From: Thermodesulfobacteriota bacterium | Lineage (GTDB): Bacteria; Desulfobacterota; QYQD01 | Length of the DNA stretch: 64,000 nt | Assembly (NCBI GenBank): GCA_040754095.1 | Contig: JBFMFO010000002.1 | Span: 73,853 to 137,852 of the forward strand | Reading direction: 5' to 3' | Part shown: positions 2,686 through 24,026 of the stretch, in pieces | Layout of the letters: the number at the start of each line of letters is the position of its first letter | How positions within the stretch are numbered: the stretch's first letter is position 1 | Program-made: the position numbers and the translations under genes | Notes under the pieces: model-generated | What the model was told of the DNA's origin: nothing | Database searches by the model: none | What the model saw: only the letters and a program-made list of their open reading frames with translations

Positions 2686-3111
2686 ATGGGCATTCGCCGG
2701 AAGGCACGAGAAAGCGCTCTTCAAATATTGTACGAAATGGACCTGACCGGGTCGGGGGCGGAAAAGGCGACGTCCGCCTTCTGCGCTTCATTTAAGATTC
2801 CGGAGCAGGCACATGATTTCTGCTTACGACTGGTCAAAGGTGTCGAGACCCATCGGGGACAAATAGATAGTTTAGTTAATGGGCATTCTGAGCACTGGCG
2901 GCTGAATCGAATGTCGCGGGTGGATCGGAATATCTTGCGGCTGGCTGCATTTGAACTCTTGTATTGTGACGACATCCCCCCTAAGGTAACTATCAACGAG
3001 GCAGTAGAGCTGGGTAAAAAATTTGGGACCGAAGACTCCGGTCCTTTTATAAATGGAATACTGGACGCCATCTACGATGCCAAGATAAAGAAGCTCATAG
3101 CTGGTAGCTGA
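2686..3111 (+). CDS. nusB: transcription antitermination factor NusB
   Basis: RRKARESALQILY N-terminus; 141 aa; classic ribH-nusB linkage. Confidence 0.9.
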   Translation: MGIRRKARESALQILYEMDLTGSGAEKATSAFCASFKIPEQAHDFCLRLVKGVETHRGQIDSLVNGHSEHWRLNRMSRVDRNILRLAAFELLYCDDIPPKVTINEAVELGKKFGTEDSGPFINGILDAIYDAKIKKLIAGS

Positions 3112-3181
3112 TGGCTCATAGCGATCAGCCATGAACCATGCGCCATGAACATTGTCAGGGTAGGAGTGATAAAACTTAGTT

Positions 3182-5680: not shown

Positions 5681-5702
5681 GCATAAGAAAGGTTACATTA
5701 AA

Positions 5703-6218
5703 ATGGAGAGATACGCTAGAGTTATCATTCCGTTACTGCTATTTTTTTTCATCTCCGCCTGTGGGTATCACTTTAGCGGACAAGGCAACCCCTTTTCCGA
5801 AGATATAAAGACCATAGCTATTCCGGTATTCAGTAATCAGACGGGAGAGGCAGGGTTCGAAAATTATTTTACAAACCAGTTGGTCTATGAATTTACAAGC
5901 CGGAAAAGGCTGAAGGTGGTCGATATCAAGGATGCGGATGTCGTTCTAAAAGGTAAAATAAAGTCGATTAACCTGCCGGATATATCCTTTAGCGGCACTT
6001 ATCTGGGGCTGGAAAGGAAGGCGGTAGTTACGATAGACGCGGTATTAGAAAAACGCGACGGCAGCGTACTCTGGCAGAACAAAGACATAATCAGAGAAGA
6101 GGTCTATAAGGTGGAGAGCAGCCCCCTTACCACAGAAAGTAATAAGCAGGCGGCCCTTCATAAGATCGCCACTGACCTTGCCGAGATGATCCACATGCGG
6201 ATATTTGAAGACTTCTAA
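5703..6218 (+). CDS. lptE: LPS-assembly lipoprotein LptE-like
   Basis: Lipoprotein signal peptide with lipobox (FISACG); 171 aa; conserved position immediately after leuS. Confidence 0.6.
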   Translation: MERYARVIIPLLLFFFISACGYHFSGQGNPFSEDIKTIAIPVFSNQTGEAGFENYFTNQLVYEFTSRKRLKVVDIKDADVVLKGKIKSINLPDISFSGTYLGLERKAVVTIDAVLEKRDGSVLWQNKDIIREEVYKVESSPLTTESNKQAALHKIATDLAEMIHMRIFEDF

Positions 6219-6227
6219 TTGATGAAT

Positions 6228-6395
6228 TCGTAAAAAGCCCAAAATATCACGCAACGCCGCCAAGGACGCAAAAAAATAGAATTTGGAACTCAGGAACTCA
6301 TGAAAAAATCTTTCATTCCTGATTTTTTGATTTCCAGATTTTAATTTTTCCTTCGCGGTCTTTGCGCCTTTGCGTGAGAAATAGAAATGGCCTGT
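6228..6395 (-). repeat. MITE-like element, family A copy 1 (~170 bp; terminal inverted repeats of cgcaaag(g/a)cgcaaag type)
   Basis: About 85-90% identical to the reverse complement of 9092-9264; TIR-like ends cacgcaacgccgccaaggacgcaaa / ttcgcggtctttgcgcctttgcgtg. Confidence 0.75.
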
Positions 6396-6423
6396 ACCTG
6401 TATAGATACAAGCCATTTCTGAC

Positions 6424-6702
6424 TTAGCTTTGTGAGCCGGATTGAAGAGCGTTTACATGTCTGGTCAAACGCGAAATTTTGCGAGCAGCGTTTCTGTGAT
6501 GGAGTGTCCCCTTGGAAGCAGCCTTGTCGATGACCGGAATAGCTTTAGCCAGAGACTCCTTGGCCTTATCCGGTGATTTTTCTGCCATAGCTGTCTGGAC
6601 TGCTTTGATTACATTTTTAACCCGGGTTTTAATAGCTTTATTAATTTCCTGTTTTTTTTCAGCCTGTTTAGCCCTTTTAATCGCTGAGTTATGATTAGCC
6701 AA
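6424..6702 (-). CDS. rpsT: 30S ribosomal protein S20
   Basis: MANHNSAIKRAKQAEKK... basic 92-aa protein typical of S20. Confidence 0.9.
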   Translation of the reverse strand: MANHNSAIKRAKQAEKKQEINKAIKTRVKNVIKAVQTAMAEKSPDKAKESLAKAIPVIDKAASKGTLHHRNAARKISRLTRHVNALQSGSQS

Positions 6703-6981: not shown

Positions 6982-7845
6982 ATGCCGGAACTTCCAGAAG
7001 TCGAGAATATAGTAAGAGACCTCCGGCCAAAGCTCTGTGGTAAGTTTATAAAATGGGTTGAAATCACCCATCCTGGCATAATAGCAGGCACGCCCCGGCG
7101 CATCTCAGACCGGAAAAATAGTCTTCCAGGGCTCCTAAGAAATAAGAAAATCAAAAACCTGTCCCGGAAAGGCAAATGTATTGTCTTTGATCTGTCAAAT
7201 GGCTATGAGCTTAGCATCCATCTGGGCATGACCGGTCAATTATTATACCGGCAGAAGGGCGGGGCGATAGATCGGTATACCCGCATGGTCCTTCATCTTA
7301 ATGATAATCTACATGAATTACGCTTTGCCGATATGCGTCGTTTTGGCTGGGTTTCCCTCCGGTCGAAAATACGCCGGGGCGTGAGACCGGGTGAAGACAA
7401 AAATGCCTATCTGGATAACCTGGGGCCTGATGCCCTGACCCTCGACCTAAAAGGGTTCAAAACCTGTCTCTCTAACCGAACCGGCACAGTAAAAGGTCTC
7501 TTACTCAATCAGCATATTATAAGCGGCATGGGGAATATTTATACGGATGAAAGTCTTTATCGGGCCGACATCCATCCGCAAAAAAAGGTAAGTACGCTCA
7601 CTGAACATGAGATCAAAAGACTCCATAAGGCCATCGGGCAGATACTCAAAGAGGCTATTGTCTGTGGTGGTTCTAGTATCAGCACCTATAGGCTGCCGGA
7701 TGGAAAAGAGGGGGAATTCCAGAGACAGCATAAGGTATATCAGCGGCAAGGCAGACCGTGCCCGCGATGCAAGACGCCTATTGTCAGGATAAAGGTGGCC
7801 GGGCGGGGGACCTATTTTTGTCCAAAATGTCAAAGTGAAAATTAG
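6982..7845 (+). CDS. mutM: formamidopyrimidine-DNA glycosylase
   Basis: MPELPEVE catalytic N-terminus; C-terminal CxxC-x16-CxxC zinc finger. Confidence 0.9.
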   Translation: MPELPEVENIVRDLRPKLCGKFIKWVEITHPGIIAGTPRRISDRKNSLPGLLRNKKIKNLSRKGKCIVFDLSNGYELSIHLGMTGQLLYRQKGGAIDRYTRMVLHLNDNLHELRFADMRRFGWVSLRSKIRRGVRPGEDKNAYLDNLGPDALTLDLKGFKTCLSNRTGTVKGLLLNQHIISGMGNIYTDESLYRADIHPQKKVSTLTEHEIKRLHKAIGQILKEAIVCGGSSISTYRLPDGKEGEFQRQHKVYQRQGRPCPRCKTPIVRIKVAGRGTYFCPKCQSEN

Positions 7846-7924
7846 CGTATAGCGGAACGTTATCATGCTGACTTACTGAAGTTTTCTGAGTTGTTAGGAA
7901 ACCCCTTGTGTTTCTGAGCGAAAC

Positions 7925-10281: not shown

Positions 10282-12540
10282 ATGGACAACGAACCCAAAA
10301 CCTTGCAGGAGATATTAGATGATATTGCACTCAAGGCTATAATGCTGACCCCGGGCAATCTGGTTGAGTTAGGGGAACTCCTCTCCAAGATCGAAGAGGT
10401 TATGGCCTATGATGATACAACCCTCCCGGCAGCTGTAAAGAAGATAGGTAGGGGACTCAAACTTATTATAGAAAAGATCATATTGGGCGAGATACCCGAC
10501 ACGGACGTAGTCTATGAAAAAATAAGCCAGGCCATCTCTATGTTGCAGGATATTTGCAGAGAAAAAGATCATGAGCAGGCCAGCGCTTCTCTTAAAAACT
10601 TTAATGGACTGCTTAAAGAATTAAATCTTCCGGATACGGAAGGGCAAACAGCGGGACAAGATGACATAACAATGGAAGAGGAGGCAACACCTGAAGCTCC
10701 TGTGACCAAAAGCAAACCGGTTATAGACATTACTCAGGATAAAGAATTGCTTACCGGTTTTATTAGCGAGAGCATGGAACATCTTGAACAAATTGAGGTG
10801 GACATCCTCTCCCTTGAACAGTCTCCCGAGGATAAGGACTGCATAAACGCTATCTTTAGACCATTCCATACTATAAAAGGTGTCTCAGGCTTTTTAAATC
10901 TACAGGATATTAACAAGTTAGCCCATGAAACGGAAAATATCCTGGACAGGGCCAGAAACGGCGAACTTTTGATCTCCTCAGAAATTATTGACCTTATCCT
11001 GGACGCCTGTGATGTCCTGAAAAGAATGATAATGGACATAAAAACGGCCTTGGAGACAGGTACATTAGAGCAAAAGGATTACGACCTGGACAGTGTTATT
11101 AGCCGGATAAAGGCCGCACAGGAAGGGGAGGCAGGAAAAGAGGCCGCCTGTCCGGAGTCTAAATTAGTAGGTGAGATACTGGTCGAAAAAGGGGTAGCTG
11201 ATACGGAGGCCATAGATAAGGCCCTGGAAAAACAGCGAGATTCCGGTGAAAAAATCGGGGAGATTATCATCAGAGAGGCCGCTGTTAAACCCAAAGAGGT
11301 CGTCCATGCCCTGCGTGAACAAAAAGCTATGGCCTCCATTGCGTCTGCCGGGACTGCCAATAGCGCCGTCAAGGTGGACATCGGCAAGCTCGATAACCTG
11401 GTAGATATGGTCGGTGAGCTGGTCATCACCCAGTCCCTTATCTGGCAGAATTCCCACGTCCAGGCCATACGGGATCAGAAACTTATGCGTGATTTCTCCC
11501 AGCTAAGCCGTATTACTACTGAGCTACAGAAGACAGCCATGTCATTGCGAATGGTGCCCATAAAACAGACCCTTCAGAAAATGATCCGGTTGGTAAGGGA
11601 TCTGGCCAAAAAATCTGAAAAACAAGTTGATCTTCAGATGAGCGGTGAGGATACAGAGATCGACCGCAATATGGTGGACGCCATTTACGATCCCTTGGTG
11701 CATATGATACGTAACTCTATAGACCATGGCATTGAGATGCCGGATGAAAGAGCAGCTAAAGGCAAGCCGGCCACCGGCACCATATGGTTAAGGGCTTATC
11801 AAAAAGGCGGTAACATTGTGATTGAGATCGAGGATGACGGACAGGGCCTGAACCGCGAGAAGATATTAAAAAAGGCAAAGGAAAAGGGATTGATTAAAAA
11901 CACCGAGGGGCTTTCCACATTTGAAATTGATAATCTTATATTCCAGGCCGGATTTTCTACAGCCGATAAGATAACCGATGTCTCCGGCCGGGGCGTAGGG
12001 ATGGATGTAGTAAAGAAAGCCATAGAGAAGTTGCGCGGCAAGGTGGAGATAAATTCGCGTCCGGGACAAGGTTCTACATTCACCATTAAGGTTCCGCTTA
12101 CCCTGGCTATTATCGACGGCATCATAGTAAAGGTAGGGGTGGAACGTTATATAGTGCCGACAGTGGTCATTAAAGAGACTATAAGGCCGCGGCAGGAAGA
12201 ATATAGCACTGTCCATGGCAAGGGCGAGATGATTAAGGTCAGGGGAAATCTTATCCCGTTAGTAAGATTATATAAGATGTTTGATATTGATGCCGAACAT
12301 AAAGACCCTTGCGAGTCCCTGGTAGTTGTGGTTGAAAACGAAGGACGGCAGAAATGCCTGCTGGTTGATGACCTCCTGGGCAAACAGGAAGTGGTCATCA
12401 AGAGTCTCGGAGACCACATGAAAAATGTCAGAGGACTGGCTGGAGGGACTATTTTAGGAGACGGAAAAGTAGGGTTGATTTTAGATATAAACGGCATATT
12501 TAGTGTGGCTGAAGAACAAAATTTGGGGATGCTGCATTAA
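10282..12540 (+). CDS. cheA: chemotaxis histidine kinase CheA with an extra N-terminal domain and an inserted MshEN-like tandem motif
   Basis: Hpt box FRPFHTIKG, dimerization domain, HATPase (GRGVGMDVV G2 box), C-terminal CheW-like P5 domain; 752 aa. Confidence 0.9.
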   Translation: MDNEPKTLQEILDDIALKAIMLTPGNLVELGELLSKIEEVMAYDDTTLPAAVKKIGRGLKLIIEKIILGEIPDTDVVYEKISQAISMLQDICREKDHEQASASLKNFNGLLKELNLPDTEGQTAGQDDITMEEEATPEAPVTKSKPVIDITQDKELLTGFISESMEHLEQIEVDILSLEQSPEDKDCINAIFRPFHTIKGVSGFLNLQDINKLAHETENILDRARNGELLISSEIIDLILDACDVLKRMIMDIKTALETGTLEQKDYDLDSVISRIKAAQEGEAGKEAACPESKLVGEILVEKGVADTEAIDKALEKQRDSGEKIGEIIIREAAVKPKEVVHALREQKAMASIASAGTANSAVKVDIGKLDNLVDMVGELVITQSLIWQNSHVQAIRDQKLMRDFSQLSRITTELQKTAMSLRMVPIKQTLQKMIRLVRDLAKKSEKQVDLQMSGEDTEIDRNMVDAIYDPLVHMIRNSIDHGIEMPDERAAKGKPATGTIWLRAYQKGGNIVIEIEDDGQGLNREKILKKAKEKGLIKNTEGLSTFEIDNLIFQAGFSTADKITDVSGRGVGMDVVKKAIEKLRGKVEINSRPGQGSTFTIKVPLTLAIIDGIIVKVGVERYIVPTVVIKETIRPRQEEYSTVHGKGEMIKVRGNLIPLVRLYKMFDIDAEHKDPCESLVVVVENEGRQKCLLVDDLLGKQEVVIKSLGDHMKNVRGLAGGTILGDGKVGLILDINGIFSVAEEQNLGMLH

Positions 12541-12551
12541 TTATAATGAAT

Positions 12552-12636
12552 GTCATTAGTCAATAGTCATTTGTCACCGGTAAAAGAGAACAATCTTCCA
12601 CCTTCAACCAATGACCGATGACTGATGACCAGTGAC
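12552..12636 (+). repeat. GTCA-rich long hairpin repeat, family B copy 1
   Basis: gtcattagtcaatagtcatttgtcaccggtaaaag ... ccaatgaccgatgactgatgaccagtgacc; left arm nearly identical to 61307-61341. Confidence 0.7.
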
Positions 12637-12683
12637 CTTGCCTATAAGCTGAAAGCTTATATATGAAAAAGGGGAGTTAAATT

Positions 12684-13064
12684 ATGCCGGCAGATAAGAA
12701 CATGAGAATATTGGTGGTTGATGACTTTAATACCATGCGCCGTATAGTAAAAAATATTCTGAAACAACTGGGATTCGAAAATGTAGGCGAGGCCGAAAAC
12801 GGTCAGGAGGCGCTTGAGGTCTTGAAAAAAGAAAAATTTGACTTCATCATAACCGACTGGAACATGCCGGTTATGACCGGTCTTGATCTGCTTAAGGCGA
12901 TCAAGGCAGACGCCGCATTAAAAGACCTCCCAGTAATGATGGTGACTGCCGAGGCGCAGCAACAGAATATCGTGGAGGCGGTTAAGAATGGGGCCAGCAA
13001 CTATATCGTCAAGCCATTTACGGCCGAGGTTCTGGAAGAAAAGATAAACAAGATATTTAAGTAA
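12684..13064 (+). CDS. cheY: chemotaxis response regulator CheY
   Basis: 126-aa single receiver domain; DD...D...K phospho-acceptor pattern ([16 protein letters not shown]). Confidence 0.85.
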
Positions 13065-13068
13065 TTTG

Positions 13069-13893
13069 ATGTTTGACGACCTTACCGATAACGAATTCGA
13101 GCTCTTCAGTAAGCTCATCTATACCAAGGCTGGCATTAACCTCCACACAGGCAAGAAGGAATTACTGCGCGCCAGGCTGGCCAAAAGGCTGAGAAGCTCT
13201 AATTTTCACAGTTTTCAGGAATATTATGATTACGTGTTGCAGGACAAAAGTGGGGAGGAACTGGTTCGGCTGCTGGATAGCGTATCCACCAACCTGACGA
13301 GTTTTTTTCGTGAATCCAAACACTTTCAATTCCTGGCAGATGAGGCACTGCCGGGCCTGCTTGCAGATAAAAAAAGGGGCGGAAGGATAAGGATCTGGAG
13401 CGCCGGTTGTTCATCGGGAGAGGAGCCTTATTCTCTTGCAATAACTATTTTAGAACATAAGGCAGGCATCCCGGCGTTGAACTTAAAAATATTGGCAACC
13501 GATATATCTACAAGGGTCTTAGCTACAGCCGAGCAGGGGATATACCCGGAAGAACGATGCAAGGATATTAATACTGATATCCTGAAAAAATACTTTCAAA
13601 AAGGACAGGGCCGGTGGCAGGGATACGTCCAGGTTAAGCCTGTAGTCAGGAACTTCATCCAGTTTATGAGATATAACCTCATGGAACCATGTCCATGTAA
13701 GGAACCTATGGACATAATTTTTTGCCGTAATGTGATGATCTATTTCGATAAGAACACACAGGAAAAAGTAGTAAACGGTTTTTATTCGGCGCTAGGTGAA
13801 GGCGGCTACCTTTTTATCGGGCACTCAGAAAGCCTGACGGGTATAAAGCATGCCTTTAAATATGCGCGCCCGACTGTCTATCAGAAAAAATAG
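13069..13893 (+). CDS. cheR: chemotaxis protein methyltransferase CheR
   Basis: CheR N-terminal helical domain plus SAM-dependent methyltransferase domain (IWSAGCSSGEEPYS); start taken at the ATG at 13069. Confidence 0.9.
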   Translation: MFDDLTDNEFELFSKLIYTKAGINLHTGKKELLRARLAKRLRSSNFHSFQEYYDYVLQDKSGEELVRLLDSVSTNLTSFFRESKHFQFLADEALPGLLADKKRGGRIRIWSAGCSSGEEPYSLAITILEHKAGIPALNLKILATDISTRVLATAEQGIYPEERCKDINTDILKKYFQKGQGRWQGYVQVKPVVRNFIQFMRYNLMEPCPCKEPMDIIFCRNVMIYFDKNTQEKVVNGFYSALGEGGYLFIGHSESLTGIKHAFKYARPTVYQKK

Positions 13894-13907
13894 AAAAAGG
13901 ATCGGTT

Positions 13908-14393
13908 GTGGCTAGCAAATTCGTCGTCGGTATTGCAGATATGTGCGTAAGCAAAGACCCCGCGGCTATTTTAATTACTTACTCTCTGGGGTCCTGCATA
14001 GGCGTGTCCATTTATGATCCTGTAGTCAAGGTGGGGGGGTTGCTTCATCTAATGCTTCCTGAATCAAAGATAGCCCCGGACAAGGCAGAAAAAAATCCGT
14101 GCATGTTTGCAGATACAGGCGTGCCCTTGCTTTTCAAAGAAGCATATAAATACGGCGCTGATAAAAAACGCATAATAATTAAAATAGCGGGCGGGGCACA
14201 GGTTATGGATGCCAGCGGCTTTTTCAATATCGGCAAACGTAACTACATGGCTCTTCGCAAGATCTTTTGGAAAAATGACGTTCTTATAAGCAAAGAAGAC
14301 ATAGGTGGTAATGTCAACCGCACTATGCGCCTTGAGATAGGCACGGGGCGCGTCTATCTCAAGGTATCGGACAGCGGAGAGATAGAGCTATGA
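13908..14393 (+). CDS. cheD: chemoreceptor glutamine deamidase CheD
   Basis: VGIADMCVSKDPAAILITYSLGSCIGV CheD signature with catalytic Cys; GTG start. Confidence 0.85.
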   Translation: MASKFVVGIADMCVSKDPAAILITYSLGSCIGVSIYDPVVKVGGLLHLMLPESKIAPDKAEKNPCMFADTGVPLLFKEAYKYGADKKRIIIKIAGGAQVMDASGFFNIGKRNYMALRKIFWKNDVLISKEDIGGNVNRTMRLEIGTGRVYLKVSDSGEIEL

Positions 14394-15223
14394 AAGATCT
14401 CAGGACCATTACTAAAGATATCAAGGAATTACCGCCACTTCCGGAAGTGGCACAGAAGGTATTTTCCTTGCTAAACGATCCCAAAAGCAACGTTCAGGAT
14501 ATGGTCAAGGTTATACAGCTTGACCAGGCTATGACGGCTAATATATTGAAATTATGCAATTCTGTATACTTCGGTCTGAAGAGAAAGATCAGTTCTTTGC
14601 AGGAGGCCCTGGTCTTGCTCGGCCAGAAAAATTTACACGAAATCATTATGACAGACAACAGCGGTAAATACTACCAAAGGGCCGGTGCAGGTTATAGCCT
14701 GGGGAAAGGCGAACTCTGGAGACATTCTGTGGCCTGCGCCCTTCTTTCTCAGATATTGGTGCGAAAAACAGGGTTGCCTGAAGATCCTTTTTTATTTACC
14801 GCCGCTCTCCTTCACGATATCGGCAAGGTGATACTCAGCACTTACGTCAAGACAGAATATGATCAAATAATCAGGTTGGTTAAAGAACAACAATATCCCT
14901 TTTTGCAGGCAGAAAAAGAGATTATCGGGATTGATCACGCCGAATTAGGGGGATGGATCGCCGAGGAATGGAATTTTCCCGGGGCCCTAGTAGAAGCGAT
15001 TGCCCAACATCATACGCCTGATACGGAGAATTACATCTCCTGTATCGTTCATCTCTGTAATCTGATGACTATCATGATGGGTATCGGCACGGGTTATGGC
15101 CTAGCTGACTATGGGAAAGATGCTGTCATGAAAAAATTGGGTCTGAAAGAAAGACATCTCGAATCATGTATGGTTGAACTATGGCATGAACTCCAGAAGG
15201 CGGAAGACCTGCTTAAATGTTAA
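14390..15223 (+). CDS. HDOD domain protein
   Basis: HD-related output domain pattern (LHDIGK, HAELG); 277 aa; overlaps the cheD stop by 4 nt, so probably co-transcribed. Confidence 0.75.
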   Translation: MKDLRTITKDIKELPPLPEVAQKVFSLLNDPKSNVQDMVKVIQLDQAMTANILKLCNSVYFGLKRKISSLQEALVLLGQKNLHEIIMTDNSGKYYQRAGAGYSLGKGELWRHSVACALLSQILVRKTGLPEDPFLFTAALLHDIGKVILSTYVKTEYDQIIRLVKEQQYPFLQAEKEIIGIDHAELGGWIAEEWNFPGALVEAIAQHHTPDTENYISCIVHLCNLMTIMMGIGTGYGLADYGKDAVMKKLGLKERHLESCMVELWHELQKAEDLLKC

Positions 15224-15267
15224 CTCAATAAATGCCTGCCTGACGGCAGGCAGGGAGGCGGCTTCTT

Positions 15268-15647
15268 ATGGCCTTTAATGTCTTAATAGTCGATGACTCT
15301 ATGGCCATGCGCAGCGTTATACGCAAGGTCATCTCGATTTCCGGCTTCGATGTCGGGGCCTTTTTTGAGGCCGGCAATGGAAAAGAAGCGCTCGAAGTCC
15401 TTAATGGGCAGTGGATAGACCTGGTTCTAAGTGATATTAATATGCCGGAGATGGATGGCCTCACTTTTGTAAAAAAGATGAGAGAGCATGAGATCTATAA
15501 AAACATCCCGGTAGTTATGATAACCACTGAAGGCTCCCAGGCCTGTATAGATGAAGCCATGTCATTGGGGGTTAAGGGGTATATCCAGAAGCCGTTTATG
15601 CCTGAGGTAATTAAGGAAAAACTCGAAGAGATTATGGAGAAGACCAG

Positions 15648-15651
<4 letters not shown>
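15268..15651 (+). CDS. CheY-like single-domain response regulator
   Basis: 127-aa receiver domain (VDDS...SDINMP...QKPF). Confidence 0.8.
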
Positions 15652-17188
<1,537 letters not shown>

Positions 17189-17296
17189 GATGACCTTGCA
17201 AGAAGTAGCTCATCCTAAAGTTGACATAATATATCTTATCCGACGTTACGCAGGGTATGCAAAAACTTTTGAGCCTCTTGCGAAAGTCCCAATTCT

Positions 17297-17445
17297 GTCA
17301 TTCCCACAGCGATTCTGACTGGATTCCCAATCAAGCACCCGGTTCCTTACTGGATTCCCGCCCGCCCCGCCTCCAGCGGACCATAGGCAGAGTCGGCGTT
17401 CTCGTCCGCCCTTGTGCGGGACCTGGACGGCTTTCGCGGGAATGA
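17297..17445 (+). repeat. family E ~150-bp element with tcattccc(a/g)c(a)gcg termini and an internal actggattccc duplication
   Basis: gtcattcccacagcg ... actggattccc x2 ... GC-rich core ... ttcgcgggaatgat; lies in a 470-bp gene-free gap. Confidence 0.45.
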
Positions 17446-17565
17446 TAAATAGCATTGAGTATTTTTCCGTAAAATTAATATAATATTAACTAGACATAAT
17501 GTTATACATTATATTAATCATCAACTGATTTGATATTACGTTAATTAATTAATTTTATTTAAACC

Positions 17566-17583
17566 ATGGAAAAACTTTTCCAT
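17566..17583 (+). promoter_or_regulatory. perfect 8-bp-arm palindrome ATGGAAAA-ac-TTTTCCAT in the AT-rich leader of the bEBP gene
   Basis: Seen directly; followed by further TTTCCA motifs (ttttttccac); candidate operator. Confidence 0.3.
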
Positions 17584-17658
17584 TTTATAAGAATTTTTTT
17601 TCCACTTTTTTTAAAAAAAATTTCCTTTTAGTCGATAAAATAAGATATAGTATAAGAC

Positions 17659-18750
17659 ATGGAGACGGCAGCCAGTATGGATATTATGGATATGATAGTT
17701 GGGGAAAGCGAACCAATTAAAAGAATAAAAGAGCTTGTTAAGCAAATAGTCGATACTGATCTGACGGTTGTAATTTACGGAGAAAGCGGTGTCGGCAAGG
17801 AATTAGTGGCCCGGTCCTTACATTTCCAATCCCACCGCAAAAATTCCCCATTTGTTAAGGTCAATTGTGCCGCCCTTCCCTCCGAGCTCCTGGAAAGTGA
17901 ATTATTTGGCTATGAAAAAGGTGCCTTTACCGGGGCTGACGGGCTGAAGCCCGGTAAATTTGAACAGGCAAATGACGGTACCATATTTTTAGACGAAATT
18001 GGAGATATGCCGTTAACATTGCAATCAAAATTGTTGCAGGTACTTCAGGATGGCGAATTCTCAAGAATTGGCGGCAAAAAGGATGTCAGGGTGAATACCT
18101 GGGTAGTCTCAGCAACTAACCACGACCTGGAAAACGAGGTTAAGCGAGGTCTTTTTAGAGAGGATCTTTTTTATCGTTTAAATATTATAAAAATCCTGGT
18201 GCCTCCCCTCCGCGACAGAAAGGAAGATATACCTATTCTGCTCAATCACTTCCTCTCACGCTATTGTAGCCAGTTTAATTCTAATTTCGTTCCGGATAAA
18301 GAAGTACTGGATATATTTTTTAGTTACCACTGGCCTGGAAATGTGCGGGAAATGGAAAACTACGTAAAAAGACTCCTGGTCCTGAATGATTGGGAACAAT
18401 TAAAGGAAGAAATTCTCGATAAAATCCATGCGGCACCCACAAGAAGGGATATGGCCATAGCGGCACCGGATGTAAAAGCAAAAGAAAAAATATCTCAGGA
18501 TGTTCTGGAGAAGTTAATAGATCTGGGTGAAGAAAAAGAGAGGATTATCTCCCTTCCTTCCCTTAAAGAAATCAAAAAACAGGCCCTCCTGAAGATCGAA
18601 AAAGAGGTGATAGAGGAGGTTTTAAAGAGAACGAACTGGAATAAGAAACTGGCCGCACGACATCTTAAGATCAGCTATAAGGCCCTGCTTTATAAAATAA
18701 AGGAGGCGGACATAAAAAAACCACCCGATTTAGAAAAGGAAAGAAAATGA
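17659..18750 (+). CDS. sigma-54-dependent transcriptional activator (bEBP) lacking an N-terminal sensory/receiver domain
   Basis: AAA+ domain starts near residue 20 (GESGVGKE Walker A; GAFTGA motif as EKGAFTGA; Walker B DEIGD); C-terminal Fis-type HTH (AARHLKISYKALLYKIKE). Confidence 0.85.
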   Translation: METAASMDIMDMIVGESEPIKRIKELVKQIVDTDLTVVIYGESGVGKELVARSLHFQSHRKNSPFVKVNCAALPSELLESELFGYEKGAFTGADGLKPGKFEQANDGTIFLDEIGDMPLTLQSKLLQVLQDGEFSRIGGKKDVRVNTWVVSATNHDLENEVKRGLFREDLFYRLNIIKILVPPLRDRKEDIPILLNHFLSRYCSQFNSNFVPDKEVLDIFFSYHWPGNVREMENYVKRLLVLNDWEQLKEEILDKIHAAPTRRDMAIAAPDVKAKEKISQDVLEKLIDLGEEKERIISLPSLKEIKKQALLKIEKEVIEEVLKRTNWNKKLAARHLKISYKALLYKIKEADIKKPPDLEKERK

Positions 18751-18778
18751 GGTAGTATTCACTATAAGACTTGCAGAT

Positions 18779-18840
18779 GAGAAAAATATTTCCACTACCA
18801 GGAGAAAAAACTTCCACAATAAGTTACCACTATTTCCATT
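18779..18840 (+). promoter_or_regulatory. candidate enhancer (UAS): three TTCCAC/ACCACT direct repeats ~100-150 nt upstream of the sigma-54 promoter
   Basis: tttccactacc, cttccacaat and ttaccactatttcc spaced about 12-24 nt apart. Confidence 0.3.
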
Positions 18841-18934
18841 TACGTCTTAAACGTTTCTGTCCGGGATTTACACATATAATTAAATCATTCATAATATCCA
18901 ATAGTTATTAATTGTCTATGGACTATAAAAGTTC

Positions 18935-18950
18935 TGGCACCTTTTTTGCT
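18935..18950 (+). promoter_or_regulatory. sigma-54 (-24/-12) promoter: TGGCAC-N5-TTGCT
   Basis: Exact match to the TGGCAC N5 TTGCW consensus; GG and GC are 12 nt apart; ~95 nt upstream of the PilZ-PAS gene and directly downstream of the bEBP gene. Confidence 0.6.
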
Positions 18951-19043
18951 CAATATTGGAAGCGTTCAAAATGTTATGTTAATGTTATGTTACCGGCACT
19001 CTTATGTTAAGTTTAGTCCGGACTTAAAGAAAGTGGTGTTAAT

Positions 19044-20555
19044 ATGCATTTAGATGGTGAAAGAAGAAGACATTTTCGTATCCCGTTACGGCTTCCCGTC
19101 CGTCACCGTGTTGCCGGCAGAGATTTTGAAGACAGTATTGCCTTAGATATTCATCAAAACGGGGCATTTATTTTATCGGAAGAACTACCGGACGTTGGAA
19201 CCGCCATAAATCTGAATTTTACCATTCCGGAGACGGACCAATTAGTCAGAGTCAAGGGCGACGTACGCTGGGTCATTGATCGTCAACCCAATCATGAATC
19301 CGGTATGGGCATTAAATTTGAAAAACCTGTATCCTTTGTAATGCCCATAGAATTAGTCTCACAATATATGGATAATAACCTGGCGGCATTTGTTGATTAT
19401 GCCCGGCATCCGTTTTACCCTGAGATTCAACAACTCAAAAATCTGAACAACCACGTCATTAACTCGGTAAATAATGGGGTTATTATATTAGACGAGGAAT
19501 TTGTAATCAGAAATTACAATCCAAAACAATGTGCTGCATTCATACCGGAAAAGCAAAAAGTAATCGGCCGACCCATCTGGGAGGTGAATAACCTATTTAA
19601 TTTACGGTATCAGGAAAAGACATTTAAAGACATATTGCAGGAAGTCTTAGGTGGTAAGAGCTATAGAATTAAAAATGTTTCTTATGAACCACCTCTAGAA
19701 GAATCAAATAATCACTACTTAGACTTGGAACTAAGGCCCGTTATCGAAGCTAGTGGCGCTGTTTCAGGTATAATAATCGTAATCCAGGACGTTTCAAAGG
19801 AAAGGCAATGGGCCTTACGGGAAAAAGAGCTTGAATCAGTCCTTATTGAACAATCCAGGCATTCTTCCGTCGGACTGATAATAAACGGATTATTGAATAA
19901 CATGGTCAACCCTCTTTCTTCCATACAAGGCAGGCTTGAATTGTTAAATCTCGAGATGCAGGCCGGTAAAAATAACTTGGCAGATTCTTCTCGTAGCACC
20001 CAGGTCGAAGATACGCCGAGACGTGGGATAGACAACCTTGATAAGTATATAGAAGGTCTGAGGATGATCGGTCATAATGTACAAACTCTCTCTGATCTGT
20101 GTCGTAATTTCATGGCCAGGATAAAGAAAGAGCAGGACACGATGCCCCGGCTTCTTAATCTGAATGATATTATTATGAACGAGATTATGTTCCTGGAAGC
20201 AAACCAGAAATTCAGGTATGAAATTAACAAAAAGTTGGCCCTAGCAAAAGACCTTCCCTTTATATGGGGGGCTTATATCGATTTTTCACAACTTATTTTC
20301 AATCTCTTAGACTATTGCATCAAGGCCATGAACCTTTCTGATAAAAAAGAGCTTTTTATTTCCACCGGATTTGAAAATAATATGATTTGTCTGGATATAA
20401 GACATTCGGGCACGACTTCAAAACAAGCGCCACAAAACGATTTTCTGCTATGTCTTCTTAATCTTTTAAGAAAAAAATACAATTTTGACCTATCCGTCCA
20501 GGAACAATATAGCAACACCATATTTTCTTTACGTATCCCGGTTTCTGAAGATTAA
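19044..20555 (+). CDS. PilZ domain - PAS - degenerate histidine-kinase-like protein
   Basis: N-terminal PilZ motifs (RRRHFRIP, DIHQNG, GMGIKF), central PAS-like region, HisKA-like helix (NNMVNPLSSIQG) and a HATPase-like C-terminus without clear G1/G2 boxes. Confidence 0.6.
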   Translation: MHLDGERRRHFRIPLRLPVRHRVAGRDFEDSIALDIHQNGAFILSEELPDVGTAINLNFTIPETDQLVRVKGDVRWVIDRQPNHESGMGIKFEKPVSFVMPIELVSQYMDNNLAAFVDYARHPFYPEIQQLKNLNNHVINSVNNGVIILDEEFVIRNYNPKQCAAFIPEKQKVIGRPIWEVNNLFNLRYQEKTFKDILQEVLGGKSYRIKNVSYEPPLEESNNHYLDLELRPVIEASGAVSGIIIVIQDVSKERQWALREKELESVLIEQSRHSSVGLIINGLLNNMVNPLSSIQGRLELLNLEMQAGKNNLADSSRSTQVEDTPRRGIDNLDKYIEGLRMIGHNVQTLSDLCRNFMARIKKEQDTMPRLLNLNDIIMNEIMFLEANQKFRYEINKKLALAKDLPFIWGAYIDFSQLIFNLLDYCIKAMNLSDKKELFISTGFENNMICLDIRHSGTTSKQAPQNDFLLCLLNLLRKKYNFDLSVQEQYSNTIFSLRIPVSED

Positions 20556-20588
20556 CCTCCACAGAAAAAATTATAAAGAAACCACAGA

Positions 20589-20641
20589 GCACACAGAGTT
20601 TTTAAAATTTAAAATTCTTTTTCTCGGTGTTCTCTGTGGTT
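20589..20641 (+). repeat. family A-like mini hairpin (cacagag variant)
   Basis: aaccacagagcacacagag - 24 nt AT-rich loop - ctcggtgttctctgtggtt; between the PilZ-PAS gene and rtcA. Confidence 0.5.
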
Positions 20642-20659
20642 AATCTTTTGATAAAACCT

Positions 20660-21751
20660 ATGATCGAAATCGATGGCTCCTATGGAGAGGGTGGCGGGCA
20701 GATATTACGGACCGCTCTAAGTCTATCCTGTCTCCTCCAGAGGCCCTTCCGCATATATAACATCCGCGCTAGCAGAAAAAATCCCGGTCTGCGCCCGCAG
20801 CATCTGGCCGGTGTAAAGGCAGCAAAGGCGATCAGCCAGGCAGCGGTTGACGGCGCCACTATCGGTTCGACTACCCTTGCCTTTCGGCCTGTTACACTAA
20901 AAGGCGGCAAATATTTCTTTGATGTGGCCGAAGAAAGGGGAAGCGCTGGATCCGTCTCTCTGGTCTTTCAAACCATATCACTTCCATTAGCTTTTGCAGG
21001 CAAGCCTTCCGATGTGACCATAAAAGGCGGCACTCATGTGCCCTGGAGTCCACCCTTTCACTACCTGGCCGTGGTATTTATTCCCACCATAGAAGGAATG
21101 GGCATGGTGGTAGATGCCCATCTTGAACGATGGGGTTGGTATCCTATGGGCGAAGGCATCGTCCATTTTTCTATAAAGTCCGCCAGAGGCGGGCTGAAAA
21201 GCATATCTAAAACCGACAAGCTGCGACCGGAAGAGGTGACCGCAATATCAGCAGCTTCCAATCTTCCGGAACACATCGTAACCCGGCAGAAGAGACAATT
21301 GTTAAATAGAATTTTTGAAGATGCGCCACGGCGTGCCACGGAGGGGACAACAATATCCTGTGAAGAGATTACGGCGCCTTCCATTGGTCAGGGAACTTTT
21401 GTATTCTTAAGGGTTCGGGGAGGCAACTCCTTTGCCGGTTTTTCGGCCCTAGGAACCAGAGGGAAGCGGGCGGAAGAAGTAGCCGATGAGACTGCCGATT
21501 TATTCCTCTCCTTTCTGGATAGTCAGGCGGCTGTAGATAGACACCTGGCCGATCAGCTTATTCCCTATATGGCCCTGGCTGATGGAGAAAGCAAAATCTT
21601 TACCGCAGAAATAACCCTGCACCTCATGACCAATATCTGGGTTGTTGAACATTTTACCCAGGCCAGGTTCCATATAGAGGGCACACTTGGCGCTCCCGGC
21701 ACCGTAACATGCCTTCCAGACAAGAAGCTGAAAGCTGATGCTAAAAGCTGA
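20660..21751 (+). CDS. rtcA: RNA 3'-terminal phosphate cyclase
   Basis: MIEIDGSYGEGGGQILRTALSLS RtcA signature; the last ~10 codons are encoded by a GCTGA-rich repeat. Confidence 0.85.
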   Translation: MIEIDGSYGEGGGQILRTALSLSCLLQRPFRIYNIRASRKNPGLRPQHLAGVKAAKAISQAAVDGATIGSTTLAFRPVTLKGGKYFFDVAEERGSAGSVSLVFQTISLPLAFAGKPSDVTIKGGTHVPWSPPFHYLAVVFIPTIEGMGMVVDAHLERWGWYPMGEGIVHFSIKSARGGLKSISKTDKLRPEEVTAISAASNLPEHIVTRQKRQLLNRIFEDAPRRATEGTTISCEEITAPSIGQGTFVFLRVRGGNSFAGFSALGTRGKRAEEVADETADLFLSFLDSQAAVDRHLADQLIPYMALADGESKIFTAEITLHLMTNIWVVEHFTQARFHIEGTLGAPGTVTCLPDKKLKADAKS

Positions 21752-21755
21752 AAGC

Positions 21756-24026
21756 TTATTTTATGCTCCCCAAGGCCTTTTCCGCCTCTCTGGCCTCCGG
21801 GAAGGCACGACTTATACCAAGGGCCTTGGTCAACTCTGCCTTGGCTTTAGCTTTATTTCCTTTCTTAAGGTAAGCCATGCCTAAGTGATAATGAATGCTG
21901 GGATGATTAGGAATCTTCTTAATGGCATCTTCAAACTCTTTTATAGCCCTCTCAACAATATTTTTCTTATAGTATATCCATCCCAGAGTATCAGCGATGC
22001 CCGGGTCTTCAGGGTTCTGTTCCTTGGCCATTTGGGCCAGGGTAAGGGCTTCGTCTATGTTTCCGCCATGTTCCGCCAGATTACAGGCCAGGTTATTTGC
22101 CGCCGGTGCAAATTTCGGATTGATTTTTAAGATTTCCCGATATTCTTTCTGGGCGGCGTCATATTTACCCCGGGAATCATATAAGACCCCCAGACTCATA
22201 CGGGCGGTTATAGCCTTTGGATTCCTTTTTATGGCCTCCTGAAACTCTGCCATGGCCTTATCCGTGCGTTTTGTGGCTGCATACAGCCTCCCCAGGGCCA
22301 TATACGGAGAGACAAAGTCAGGACTGATACTGATTGCTTTCTTGTAGTTTACTTCCGCAAGATCAACCTTCTGATCCGCCAAGTGGAGATTGCCGAGCAG
22401 GTTATAGATAAAAGGATTGTTGGGGGAACGTTTAAGCTGTTCCTCCGCTCGTGTTATGGCCTTTTTCAGATCTCTCCCCGCCACGTGAATAGAAACCACC
22501 TGGCTCAAGGCATCAATAAGATGGGGGTTTAACTTTAAGGCGTCTTCAAACTCACTTAACGCCGAATTATTCTGGCCTATCACACGGTAAGCTATGCCCA
22601 GACGATAATAACCTGCCGGTGACCTGGGAGCTATTTTCTTGGCCTCCTGATATTCCTTTTGCGCCTCCTTGACCTTCTTTTGCCCCATATAACTGTCTCC
22701 CAGGAGGAGCCTGGCCTGGAAATTTCCCGGCTGAATCTTGATCGCTTCCTGCAATTCCCTTTGTGCTGCATCAACAGCCCGTTCTCCCAAATAGACCTCG
22801 GCCAGCAGCAATCTTGCCTTTGTAAGGCCCGGCGCCTGCTTAACGACCTCAACCAGGCTGTTTTTAGCGAGCTGGGTTTCACCTTTCCCGATATGGGCCA
22901 GGGCCTTATAATAGCGGACGTCCTGAAGACGCGGCTCTTCTTTAAGAATCCCATCAAATTCGGTCAGGGCATTGGTAAAATCTCTCTTATTGAGATAAAT
23001 CCGACCCTTAAGTATCCGGGCCGGGATGTTCTTTTCGTTTTCGTCAAGAATATCTTCCAGTTCTTTTTCGGCCTCTTTTATCTTTCCAAAGTCATAATAG
23101 AGCGTGGCTATGGCATTTTTGATATTCAAATCATCAGATTTAGCCTCCGAAGCCTTCTTAAACCCGGCAAGGGCAGGTTCAAATTTATTCTGTAAGGCAT
23201 AATATCGTCCCAGGACCATAAAAGGTTTCGGGTCCTTGGGATCGAGCTGTGTGGCCTTTTTAAAGGTACCCTCAGCCTCTGTCGGCCTGCGTGTTGCCAT
23301 ATAGAAATTGCCCAGTATAATGTAATAGTCTGCTTTCTTGGGGTTTAAGGAGATAATCTTCTTCAATTCGGCCTCTGCCTGGTCAATTCGTCCGGTACGG
23401 GCATAAAAGTCAGCCAGTGTGAGCCGGGGGGCAGGCGCTTTCTCGTCTGCCGCCATTGCCTTTTTAAGGTATTCCTCCGCGAGGTCTAATTTCTTCTGCC
23501 CTGCATAAATCCTGGCCAGTAATATGTAGGCCGGAGACTGTTTAGGATCGAGCGCAATAACTCTATTCAGGGTGGCAATAGTTTCGTCGGGTTTACCTTC
23601 TGCCAATAGAATGTTGCCTGACAGATAGAGGGCATCAATATTGTCAGGCTCCTTTTTTAAGACTAAGGCGGCCTTTTCTTTTGCCTCCGGCAGCTTTCGG
23701 CCTAACATGTATAGATTTCCAAGTTTAATCTGGGCATCGTATAGCTCAGGATTAAGTTCCACCGTTCGGCTTAGTTCTCCAAATGCACCCCTTAGATTCC
23801 CCTTTTTGAGATAAACAAGGCCTAATTGATGGTGCCCATCTACATATTTGGGATCGATCTGGAGGGCATTCTTGAACTCAATAATGGCCTCATCCAGCTT
23901 ATTTTCCTTAACCAATTCCATGCCCTTTTTATAATGTTTAGCCTTCTTTTCCTCAGGAGTGCTGCAGCCGACACATATCAGCATTATTACTGCAACCAGG
24001 GAAAACCAAAACCTTTCTGTCCTCAT
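21756..24026 (-). CDS. TPR-repeat lipoprotein
   Basis: Lipoprotein signal (LICVGCS), then about 20 tandem TPR units (repeated Y/A/G/L pattern); 756 aa. Confidence 0.8.
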   Translation of the reverse strand: MRTERFWFSLVAVIMLICVGCSTPEEKKAKHYKKGMELVKENKLDEAIIEFKNALQIDPKYVDGHHQLGLVYLKKGNLRGAFGELSRTVELNPELYDAQIKLGNLYMLGRKLPEAKEKAALVLKKEPDNIDALYLSGNILLAEGKPDETIATLNRVIALDPKQSPAYILLARIYAGQKKLDLAEEYLKKAMAADEKAPAPRLTLADFYARTGRIDQAEAELKKIISLNPKKADYYIILGNFYMATRRPTEAEGTFKKATQLDPKDPKPFMVLGRYYALQNKFEPALAGFKKASEAKSDDLNIKNAIATLYYDFGKIKEAEKELEDILDENEKNIPARILKGRIYLNKRDFTNALTEFDGILKEEPRLQDVRYYKALAHIGKGETQLAKNSLVEVVKQAPGLTKARLLLAEVYLGERAVDAAQRELQEAIKIQPGNFQARLLLGDSYMGQKKVKEAQKEYQEAKKIAPRSPAGYYRLGIAYRVIGQNNSALSEFEDALKLNPHLIDALSQVVSIHVAGRDLKKAITRAEEQLKRSPNNPFIYNLLGNLHLADQKVDLAEVNYKKAISISPDFVSPYMALGRLYAATKRTDKAMAEFQEAIKRNPKAITARMSLGVLYDSRGKYDAAQKEYREILKINPKFAPAANNLACNLAEHGGNIDEALTLAQMAKEQNPEDPGIADTLGWIYYKKNIVERAIKEFEDAIKKIPNHPSIHYHLGMAYLKKGNKAKAKAELTKALGISRAFPEAREAEKALGSIK

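Follow-up and report, generated by a model that had tools for sequence, protein, structure and literature searches.

To our knowledge, few natural bacterial enhancer-binding proteins (bEBPs), the AAA+ activators of sigma-54 RNA polymerase, lack a regulatory domain, and each well-studied case (PspF, HrpRS) has revealed a control protein that acts in trans. Such a bEBP is expected to be active unless restrained, as PspF and HrpRS are. PspA, the product of a PspF-activated promoter, binds the AAA+ domain of PspF and inhibits it, and PspF autoregulates its own sigma-70 promoter by binding its enhancer. NifL, the partner of NifA, is so far the sole histidine-kinase-derived anti-activator of a bEBP that we know of. 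Here, we analyze two neighboring genes in a 64,000-nt stretch of DNA from a Thermodesulfobacteriota bacterium (contig JBFMFO010000002.1, positions 73,853–137,852; 47.5% G+C), which we call the window and number from its first letter. The first gene encodes a bEBP that consists of AAA+ and helix-turn-helix (HTH) regions, and the second encodes a PilZ-PAS-histidine-kinase-like protein without the residues for catalysis, hereafter the pseudokinase. With a probability of about 45%, we propose that the pair forms a self-contained sigma-54 module, in which the bEBP activates transcription of the pseudokinase gene and the product of that gene acts back on the AAA+ domain of the bEBP.

The closest described systems are NifL–NifA and PspF–PspA. 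For NifL–NifA of Azotobacter vinelandii (PDB 9qq6), the inhibitory complex forms with no more than the DH, GHKL, and AAA+ domains (PMC12998190), and counterparts of these domains are all present in the window pair. The two systems are also alike in combining a PAS-containing, kinase-derived non-kinase with a sigma-54 bEBP encoded by the neighboring gene. NifL, however, binds ADP through an intact GHKL domain and senses redox through its FAD-PAS1 domain, whereas in the window protein the ATP-binding boxes are gone and a PilZ domain stands at the N-terminus. NifA contains a GAF domain that the window bEBP lacks and, unlike in NifL–NifA, the gene order is reversed here, the two genes are separate transcription units, and the bEBP would drive its partner from a sigma-54 promoter; no nif genes were found among the annotated neighbors. 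With PspF–PspA (and HrpR/HrpS–HrpV), the window pair shares a natural bEBP of only AAA+ and HTH domains and a neighboring sigma-54 promoter. It differs in that the partner is a PilZ-PAS-pseudokinase rather than the coiled-coil PspA/IM30 or HrpV, and in that the genes are tandem rather than divergent; the annotated neighbors include no PspA/IM30 gene. The module resembles NifL–NifA and PspF–PspA in the way it would work and is a member of neither.

Further likenesses concern parts of the module. The nucleotide c-di-GMP (cyclic diguanylate) is linked to sigma-54-type activators in the case of FleQ and its partner FleN, a trans-acting anti-activator that contacts the FleQ AAA+ domain. FleQ and VpsR are bEBPs that are themselves direct c-di-GMP receptors; in FleQ the nucleotide binds the AAA+ domain itself, whereas here the receptor would be a separate PilZ protein. 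DivL of Caulobacter, a PAS-DHp-CA protein without a phospho-acceptor histidine that signals by binding, is among the fold matches of the pseudokinase (4q20), but it keeps an ATP-binding CA domain, binds phospho-DivK, controls CckA, and has neither a PilZ domain nor a bEBP partner. The PilZ proteins of the HapZ–SagS, MapZ–CheR1, and TssZ–HinK pairs relay c-di-GMP by sequestering a signaling protein or transcription factor, as TssZ does with the regulator HinK (PMC10912698). These adaptors differ from the window protein in being single-domain proteins that act on a kinase, a methyltransferase, or a LysR-type regulator, with no pseudokinase fusion and no bEBP. RtcR–rtcBA likewise places a sigma-54 bEBP near an RNA 3′-phosphate cyclase gene, but the window bEBP lacks a CARF domain, there is no rtcB, and the RtcR cut-off is not reached. 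In the searchable literature, we found no description of a PilZ-pseudokinase, of a family of PilZ-PAS-DHp-CA proteins without the histidine and the ATP site, or of a PilZ partner for a bEBP.

Results

The gene pair is conserved in different surroundings

The bEBP gene (17659–18750, + strand, 363 aa) and the pseudokinase gene (19044–20555, + strand, 503 aa) sit between a Che-like operon and rtcA, and the nearest relatives of the window are metagenome-assembled genomes labelled Thermodesulfobacteriota. We compared this locus with 6 contigs that carry close homologues, 12 loci from species-representative genomes, and 6 from metagenomes (referred to by number, L001 onward), all from hosts classified as uncultured Deltaproteobacteria, Desulfobacterales, or Thermodesulfobacteriota. 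Some of these loci are close kin (L015/L016, L010/L011, L012/L013, and L017/L024), and the ~20 loci represent perhaps 8–10 independent lineages. In every one of the 20 related loci with upstream DNA (5 close, 10 distant genome, and 5 metagenome loci), a bEBP gene immediately preceded the pseudokinase gene, and this bEBP gene was intact and free of an N-terminal domain wherever the contig included its 5′ end. Between the window clade and the distant clade, the bEBPs were 54–60% identical across essentially their full length, and the pseudokinase partners were 21–26% identical.

The gene pair was found in at least three genomic contexts: beside a Che operon, beside genes for a REC-GGDEF and a REC protein, and beside ddl and argS. 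In the window clade, the Che operon lies upstream, and either rtcA (window, L001, L005) or rpsT (L002, L003) lies downstream. In the distant clade, a REC-GGDEF gene with GGDEF intact lies divergently upstream, and downstream a single-REC gene converges on the pseudokinase gene, with GalT-like, dksA, moaC, and dnaJ genes beyond it. These REC-GGDEF and single-REC flanks occur in L009–L013, L017, L020, and L022–L024 (in L011 at 2835–3851 and 7514–7888, both on the − strand), and the single-REC gene is 77–88% identical across loci, above every other neighbor; both REC genes are candidates for further inputs to the module. The third context is that of L019, where the pair sits between ddl and argS with the upstream bEBP, palindromes, and promoter (described below) intact.

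The edges of the conserved unit could also be traced. An ISL3-family transposase gene (DDE_Tnp_ISL3, E 8e-60; L010 4225–5469) has inserted between the bEBP gene and the enhancer in L010, and enhancer and promoter stayed beside the pseudokinase gene despite this insertion. Beyond the pseudokinase stop codon, the DNA is unalignable even among close relatives, and in the window a stem-loop followed by a UCUUUU stretch was identified there by folding (20570–20652, + strand; −27.6 kcal/mol, z-score −5.25, with 0 of 200 shuffled sequences folding as well). This stem-loop is likely to be a transcript end or module boundary. Thus, the constant pairing, the varied surroundings, and the unalignable downstream DNA indicate that the conserved unit consists of the bEBP gene, the enhancer, the promoter, and the pseudokinase gene.

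An earlier note on this DNA, made from sequence alone, had placed the pair immediately after the Che-like operon and suggested that it might be a c-di-GMP-responsive output of the chemosensory pathway. The placement holds, with the operon ending at 17188, but a chemosensory output is not general: Che adjacency is limited to the window's own clade (window, L002, L005), and the Che operon as an obligatory partner was rejected as a general rule, as the contexts in the distant clade and in L019 differ.

One locus shows an altered pseudokinase gene. In L019 (2630–3730), the pseudokinase frame is 366 aa long and tblastn matches query residues 7–481 piecewise; the gene may be frameshifted or shortened.

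The activator has no sensory domain

Pfam assigned only three domains to the bEBP: Sigma54_activat (PF00158) at residues 13–179 (E 9e-70; 234 bits against a cut-off of 20.2), AAA_lid_14 at 185–256, and the Fis-type HTH_8 at 312–349 (44.6 bits against a cut-off of 22). No further Pfam domain was detected, and REC, GAF, PAS, V4R, and CARF domains are all lacking N-terminally, where just 12 residues precede the AAA+ domain. A stop codon at 17656, three bases upstream of the ATG, closes the frame, so that no hidden N-terminal domain lies upstream. These results bear out the earlier description of the protein as a bEBP without receiver, GAF, PAS, or CARF domain, and the Walker A motif that it had put near residue 40 (GESGVGKE) was located at residues 41–48. 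The machinery for activation appears complete, with FLDEIGDM present and GAFTGA intact, and all bEBP orthologues examined (n = 15) retain GAFTGA and both Walker motifs, A and B. The distant bEBPs open with the AAA+ motif M-(E/D)-L-I-(V/I)-G and are therefore also without any N-terminal domain. The HTH region (..ISYKALLYK..) is conserved in orthologues of both clades, which fits a single shared DNA motif. The best PDB match of the bEBP was the NifA chain of 9qq6 (E 9e-76).

The partner has a histidine-kinase fold and no catalytic residues

Pfam, profile comparison, and a fold model together divide the pseudokinase into a PilZ domain (aa 6–95, nt 19059–19328), a PAS domain (aa 136–254, nt 19449–19805), a DHp-like hairpin (aa 255–363, nt 19806–20132), and a CA-like domain (aa 364–503, nt 20133–20552). 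The PilZ domain (PF07238, E 4e-13; 49.9 bits against a cut-off of 22.5) and the PAS domain were found directly by Pfam, and neither HisKA nor HATPase_c matched the protein at E 0.01. A profile built from the protein and six close homologues aligned residues 229–457 to the FixL kinase core (E 8e-9) and residues 365–455 to the NifL chain of 9qq6 (E 1.4e-5). An AlphaFold model based on 15 diverse family members reached a pLDDT of 76.9 (7 close homologues alone gave an unusable model with a pLDDT of 37.9) and shows a PilZ barrel, a PAS fold, a helical hairpin (251–315 and 326–363), and an alpha/beta domain. Foldseek matched this model to PAS-histidine kinases (E 3e-17), to NifL (E 1.4e-14, rank 10), and to DivL (E 2e-9). 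The profile, AlphaFold, and Foldseek results together show that the C-terminal half has a histidine-kinase fold.

Every catalytic element of that fold is altered. The H-box equivalent LLNNMVNPLSSIQGRLELL has no histidine, and in the FixL alignment N285, within LLNNMVNPLSSIQGR, occupies the position of the phospho-acceptor; window-clade proteins have Asn or Thr at this position, and distant-clade proteins have Asp or Glu. The N-box reads NLLDYC, with Tyr in place of the metal-binding Asn, and the G1 box reads D-I-R-H-S-G-T, with His in place of the adenine-contacting Asp, and the G2 box and ATP lid are lacking in the FixL alignment. These losses hold in six homologues at 60–95% identity and also across the family, for which an exhaustive HMMER search yielded ~14 clusters at 50% identity that are 21–25% identical to the window protein (consensus LLEDIVNPLSAVVGRLDLL ... 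HNGKAL). None of the 31 family members examined has a histidine at or beside the H-box position, and the next-best database matches past the family are ordinary kinases with DxGxG and N-box motifs. A profile search of a 5.8-billion-protein word index returned only the six known close homologues, as did a search with the single sequence; the distant family came from the exhaustive search of representatives. The earlier note had described a PilZ-PAS-histidine-kinase-like protein with degenerate ATP-binding boxes and had asked whether orthologues carry intact kinase boxes; the description is confirmed and extends to the phospho-acceptor histidine, and the losses are conserved in all orthologues and in the wider family.

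Conservation elsewhere in the protein is uneven. The best-conserved 15-residue stretch falls in the histidine-less H-box (residues 283–301; majority-residue fraction 0.83), and the corresponding value for the PilZ and PAS domains is 0.40. Within the PilZ motif R7-R8-R9-H-F-R12, R7, R8, and R12 are invariant, and RRxxxR is present in all full-length family members. Together with the second PilZ motif (below), this makes c-di-GMP binding likely for the family and no more than possible for the window protein. By NCBIfam, the genuine kinases that come closest are AtoS and ZraS, which are partners of NtrC-type regulators.

Two further features of the C-terminal half were recorded. Cys353 (nt 20100–20102), in DHp helix 2, is invariant across the whole family, and a conserved H-N/S-G motif replaces the G1 box (H-S-G at nt 20403–20411 in the window).

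A sigma-54 promoter and three phased palindromes precede the pseudokinase gene

The sequence TGGCACcttttTTGCT (18935–18950, + strand) matches the sigma-54 promoter consensus TGGCAC-N5-TTGCT at all 11 specified positions. It begins 185 nt past the bEBP stop codon and ends 94 nt ahead of the pseudokinase ATG at 19044, as the earlier note had it; the match is exact and, as we now find, conserved. With GG at −25/−24 and GC at −13/−12, the predicted transcription start is ~18961. Within the window, this is the sole site within one mismatch of the consensus. TGGCAC-N5-TTGCT is kept in L001–L006, including L004, in which the protein is only 60% identical and the remaining intergenic DNA is unalignable. 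Counted over the close loci whose DNA spans the region, the site is present in 5 of 5. A GG-N10-GC element matching 9 or 10 of the 11 positions also precedes the pseudokinase gene in the distant loci (11 of 11 from genomes and 5 of 5 from metagenomes), at a distance of 50–150 nt, or 220–320 nt in two loci, and against a background rate of ~0.07 such sites per kb per strand in those loci.

Upstream of the promoter, palindrome alignment and fixed offsets define an upstream activating sequence of three phased imperfect palindromes (18779–18839): GAGAAAAATATTTCCA (18779–18794), GAGAAAAAACTTCCA (18802–18816), and TTACCACTATTTCCAT (18824–18839), with the 16-bp consensus TGGAAAA-N2-TTTTCCA. The earlier note had read TTCCAC direct repeats at 18779–18840 as an enhancer; the location stands, but the repeats are really the right halves of the three palindromes. 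These right halves (TTCCA) end at 18794, 18816, and 18838, a spacing of 22 bp, and the sites lie 97–157 bp upstream of the promoter TGG. Measured from the T of TGG, the palindrome offsets are −157, −133, and −111 in the window clade and −129, −107/−105, and −85 in the distant clade, where they are nearly fixed (overall span −130 to −70). Palindrome density is 5.2 per kb in these intergenic stretches compared to 0.24 per kb elsewhere in the loci, a 22-fold difference. No other pairing of enhancer and promoter was found in the 64-kb window, which otherwise contains just palindromes with three mismatches and without promoters. From this layout, we infer that three dimer sites on one helix face would fit the assembly of a hexameric activator. 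The spacer between enhancer and promoter (18840–18934) is 72% A+T and may serve as a bending region; it contains a sequence, TATCCAATAGTTA at 18895–18907, with one mismatch to the integration host factor consensus, a tentative candidate site by consensus match only.

Even between close relatives, the pseudokinase mRNA has a hypervariable 5′ leader (window 18961–19043; L001 1470–1680; L002 6166–6287). The window leader carries a ~10-nt duplication within ATGTTATGTTAATGTTATGTTA, L002 and L003 share a 47-nt insert straight after the promoter, and L001 carries ~130 nt of inserted, repeat-rich DNA. Rfam gave no family match for this leader.

The bEBP leader repeats the enhancer layout

The leader of the bEBP gene contains three phased sites of the same type (17567–17626), a candidate autoregulatory operator: the perfect palindrome TGGAAAAACTTTTCCA (17567–17582) and the weaker AAGAATTTTTTTTCCA (17589–17604) and TTAAAAAAAATTTCCT (17611–17626). 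Their right halves end 22 bp apart, in the same three-site layout as the enhancer. The perfect palindrome that the earlier note had seen at 17566–17583, ATGGAAAAACTTTTCCAT, is present, and its 16-mer is the sole zero-mismatch site in the window. The leader sites are conserved in 4 of 5 close relatives, with L001 lacking them: L005 and L006 have sites at about −92 and −70 from the ATG, and L002 keeps the −69 site together with a degraded 11-of-14 match at −91. No GG-N10-GC (−24/−12) element occurs between the leader sites and the bEBP ATG, and sigma-70-like hexamers lie upstream of the sites at 17455–17515; the simplest reading is therefore a pspF-like repression of a sigma-70 promoter. The autoregulation that the earlier note had suggested is plausible in view of the repeated 22-bp layout and its retention in close relatives.

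The pseudokinase as a candidate regulator of the bEBP

The proposed mechanism has three parts, which we hold with different confidence. In the first, bEBP dimers would bind the three 16-bp palindromes, phased at 22 bp on one face of the DNA, through their Fis-type HTH; three dimers would build one hexamer, which would remodel sigma-54 RNA polymerase at TGGCAC-N5-TTGCT and start transcription of the pseudokinase gene near 18961. We consider this activation very probable because the promoter is exact and conserved, the palindromes are fixed in position and 22-fold enriched, the HTH and GAFTGA are conserved, and the enhancer has been retained beside the pseudokinase gene in L010. In the second, the three-site array in its own leader would let the bEBP regulate its own, apparently sigma-70-type, promoter; autoregulation is probable, though held with less assurance, because the leader motif is identical to that of the enhancer and is conserved in close relatives. 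In the third, the pseudokinase would be the trans-acting sensor of the bEBP and would touch its AAA+ domain directly, with PilZ (through c-di-GMP) and/or PAS setting whether the two proteins bind, and the bEBP would thereby drive the gene of its own modulator in a feedback loop of the PspF–PspA type.

This third part is tentative and is drawn largely by analogy. It is proposed because the bEBP has no sensor, while the non-catalytic pseudokinase keeps a dimeric DHp/CA scaffold in which the H-box patch is the best-conserved surface, and because the pseudokinase is the only protein that always travels with the bEBP and offers PilZ and PAS domains as a multi-sensor scaffold. It is supported by the adjacency of the pair in every informative locus while the flanks rearrange at the module's edges, by the match of the two proteins to the two chains of the NifL–NifA complex, and by the family-wide loss of the His, the N-box Asn, G1, and G2 in a protein whose next-best matches are complete kinases. 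Support for c-di-GMP as the input comes from the universal RRxxxR of the PilZ domain and from the REC-cyclase gene with intact GGDEF that lies divergently beside the pair in the distant clade. Inhibition is the favored sign of the effect, by analogy, because the known trans-acting partners of bEBP AAA+ domains (PspA, HrpV, NifL, FleN) are all inhibitors. The earlier note had postulated that the bEBP was either constitutive or controlled by a partner, and the pseudokinase is the best candidate for such a partner. A comparable step was taken by Kazakov et al., who inferred partner proteins for four EBPs of D. vulgaris without an N-terminal domain (PMC4641369).

Several observations weigh against feedback by the pseudokinase or against parts of the module. 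Gene adjacency is equally expected if the pseudokinase is a mere regulated output. The CA-like domain lacks the nucleotide site that NifL needs, with ADP, to bind NifA, which leaves the analogy incomplete, and the bEBP is nearer to NifA only marginally (258.6 bits, vs 256.1 and 254.2 for NtrC and FleQ). Neither protein reaches an NCBIfam equivalog cut-off: the bEBP scored 344 bits against NifA (cut-off 529), 286.5 against PspF (TIGR02974; cut-off 443.6), and 294.5 against RtcR (NF038308; cut-off 650), and the pseudokinase scored 36.4 bits against NifL (TIGR02938; cut-off 242) and 55 against AtoS (cut-off 646). The second PilZ motif is D/N-I-H-Q-N-G in the window clade (D-I-H-Q-N-G in the window), with His in place of Ser; other family members have Ser, Asn, or Thr there, and the canonical (D/N)xSxxG is found in ~40% of the members listed. 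Leader palindromes are sporadic in the distant clade, with a single site in some loci (L015, L017). Finally, neither the window nor any of the fetched loci yielded an open reading frame (ORF) with an RpoN box; we infer the presence of rpoN in the host genome from the intact bEBP.

The explanation that best survives beside feedback on the bEBP is that the pseudokinase is an output only, and that the bEBP is constitutive or is controlled solely through the level of its expression or by a partner encoded elsewhere. The pseudokinase might then dock a phosphorylated single-domain receiver (CheY or REC) in the manner of DivL, or form a heterodimer with a genuine kinase, and in either case would pass c-di-GMP or PAS information to a target other than the bEBP. 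REC genes are indeed nearby, with two CheY genes in the window operon and single-REC and REC-GGDEF genes in the distant clade. In true kinases receivers dock at the H-box region, which here is the best-conserved surface, and the fold matches include the C-terminal part of DivL. It is also common for a bEBP gene to lie beside its target (PMC4641369). An output-only role, however, leaves the bEBP without signal input at any locus, though sigma-54 systems give tight, signal-dependent control, and the REC neighbors vary by clade and are absent in L019, whereas the bEBP–pseudokinase pair is constant. We regard it as less likely than feedback on the bEBP; it is compatible with such feedback, to which a REC protein could be a further input.

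Direct sensing of c-di-GMP by the bEBP through its AAA+ domain, as in FleQ, with the PilZ protein as an unrelated effector under its control, appears very unlikely. FleQ is among the closest solved relatives of the bEBP AAA+ domain (E 2e-74), and its c-di-GMP contacts are R138, R144, R151, R185, E330, E332, and R334 (PMC10723142). Five of these seven are not conserved in the window bEBP: R144 is replaced by D11, R151 by E18, E330 by H197, and E332 by L199, and R138 falls in the short N-terminal tail, a position past which the distant-clade proteins begin. The only contacts kept are arginines that also serve ATP binding (R185 as R52 and R334 as R201).

A still slimmer chance attaches to the C-terminal module being an active kinase or phosphatase that works through non-canonical residues, so that the pair would be an unorthodox two-component system. 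The DHp and CA folds are kept, and the H-N/S-G motif and the invariant Cys353 could in principle be functional, but none of the 31 members has a histidine at or beside the H-box position, nothing of the G2 box and lid is left, both the Asn of the N-box and the Asp of G1 are gone, and the partner bEBP has no receiver domain as a phosphoryl acceptor. Least credible of all is that promoter and repeats are chance matches in AT-rich DNA and that the pseudokinase gene is read from a sigma-70 promoter, for which the spacer offers a 10-of-12 site, TTTACA-17-CATAAT at 18867–18895, though such sites are no commoner there than in shuffled sequence. An exact sigma-54 site is expected just 0.029 times per window, and the element is conserved where the DNA around it can no longer be aligned; in both clades its spacing to the conserved palindromes is fixed.

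Neighboring genes of the window

The Pfam scan covered 26 ORFs of the window, with ~35 smaller or housekeeping-looking ORFs outside it. By Pfam annotation, the Che-like operon (10282–17188) reads CheA-CheY-CheR-CheD-HDOD-CheY-CheX-CheB. It includes an HDOD protein, CheD, CheX, and two CheY genes; no gene for a methyl-accepting chemotaxis protein (MCP) or stand-alone CheW was found among the annotated ORFs (~35 others unscanned), and the operon may specify a chemosensory system of the "alternative cellular function" type whose receptor gene is located elsewhere. Searches by tblastn, by regular expression, and among the 26 Pfam-scanned ORFs (~35 unscanned) found no GGDEF gene, rpoN, or MCP gene in the window, and Rfam gave nothing credible in 17100–21800, neither a c-di-GMP riboswitch nor any other family in the leaders.

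Downstream lies rtcA, encoding RNA 3′-phosphate cyclase by Pfam (20627–21751, + strand). It was rejected as a part of the module, as rpsT replaces it in L002 and L003 and a strong hairpin separates it from the pseudokinase gene; neither rtcB nor a CARF-type rtcR is nearby, and its proximity to a sigma-54 activator is probably coincidental. Convergent on rtcA is a gene for a 756-aa protein made almost entirely of TPR repeats (21756–24026, − strand), a gene also conserved in both L001 and L005. The genes after the Che-bEBP-pseudokinase block in L002 and L003 are rpsT, lptE, leuS, nusB, and ribH. By ORF length only, these genes (L002 8167–12668) can be matched to ORFs upstream of the Che operon in the window (2686–6702); if they correspond, an inversion or rearrangement breakpoint lies directly after the pseudokinase stop codon.

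Discussion

The window pair looks like a former AtoS/NtrB-type kinase and its NtrC-type regulator, with phosphotransfer lost on both sides. The position of AtoS and ZraS as the nearest genuine kinases is consistent with descent from a two-component pair in which the histidine, the ATP site, and the receiver were lost. With more reserve than we attach to the feedback itself, we suggest that such a fossil two-component system became a stoichiometric switch: the PAS kinase would have lost its histidine and ATP site and gained a PilZ domain, its NtrC-type partner would have lost the receiver, and the DHp/CA part would now gate the AAA+ domain under the control of c-di-GMP and possibly of a docked phospho-REC protein.

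The pseudokinase family is conserved over a broad Thermodesulfobacteriota clade of bacteria of the sulfate-reducer type, bears a PilZ domain, and has completely lost its catalytic residues. Its module is compact, with a single promoter and a 16-bp operator besides the two genes. Its hosts are uncultured, but the module can be reconstructed in E. coli. If the proposed mechanism is true, the module would be a feedback loop under autoregulation, its hexamer assembled from three dimers at the three phased sites, and c-di-GMP would have a fourth way to act on sigma-54 transcription, in addition to binding FleQ, VpsR, or BerB-type activators directly. The module would also be a second, independently evolved mechanism like that of NifL–NifA, and kinase-derived control of bEBPs would then have arisen more than once.

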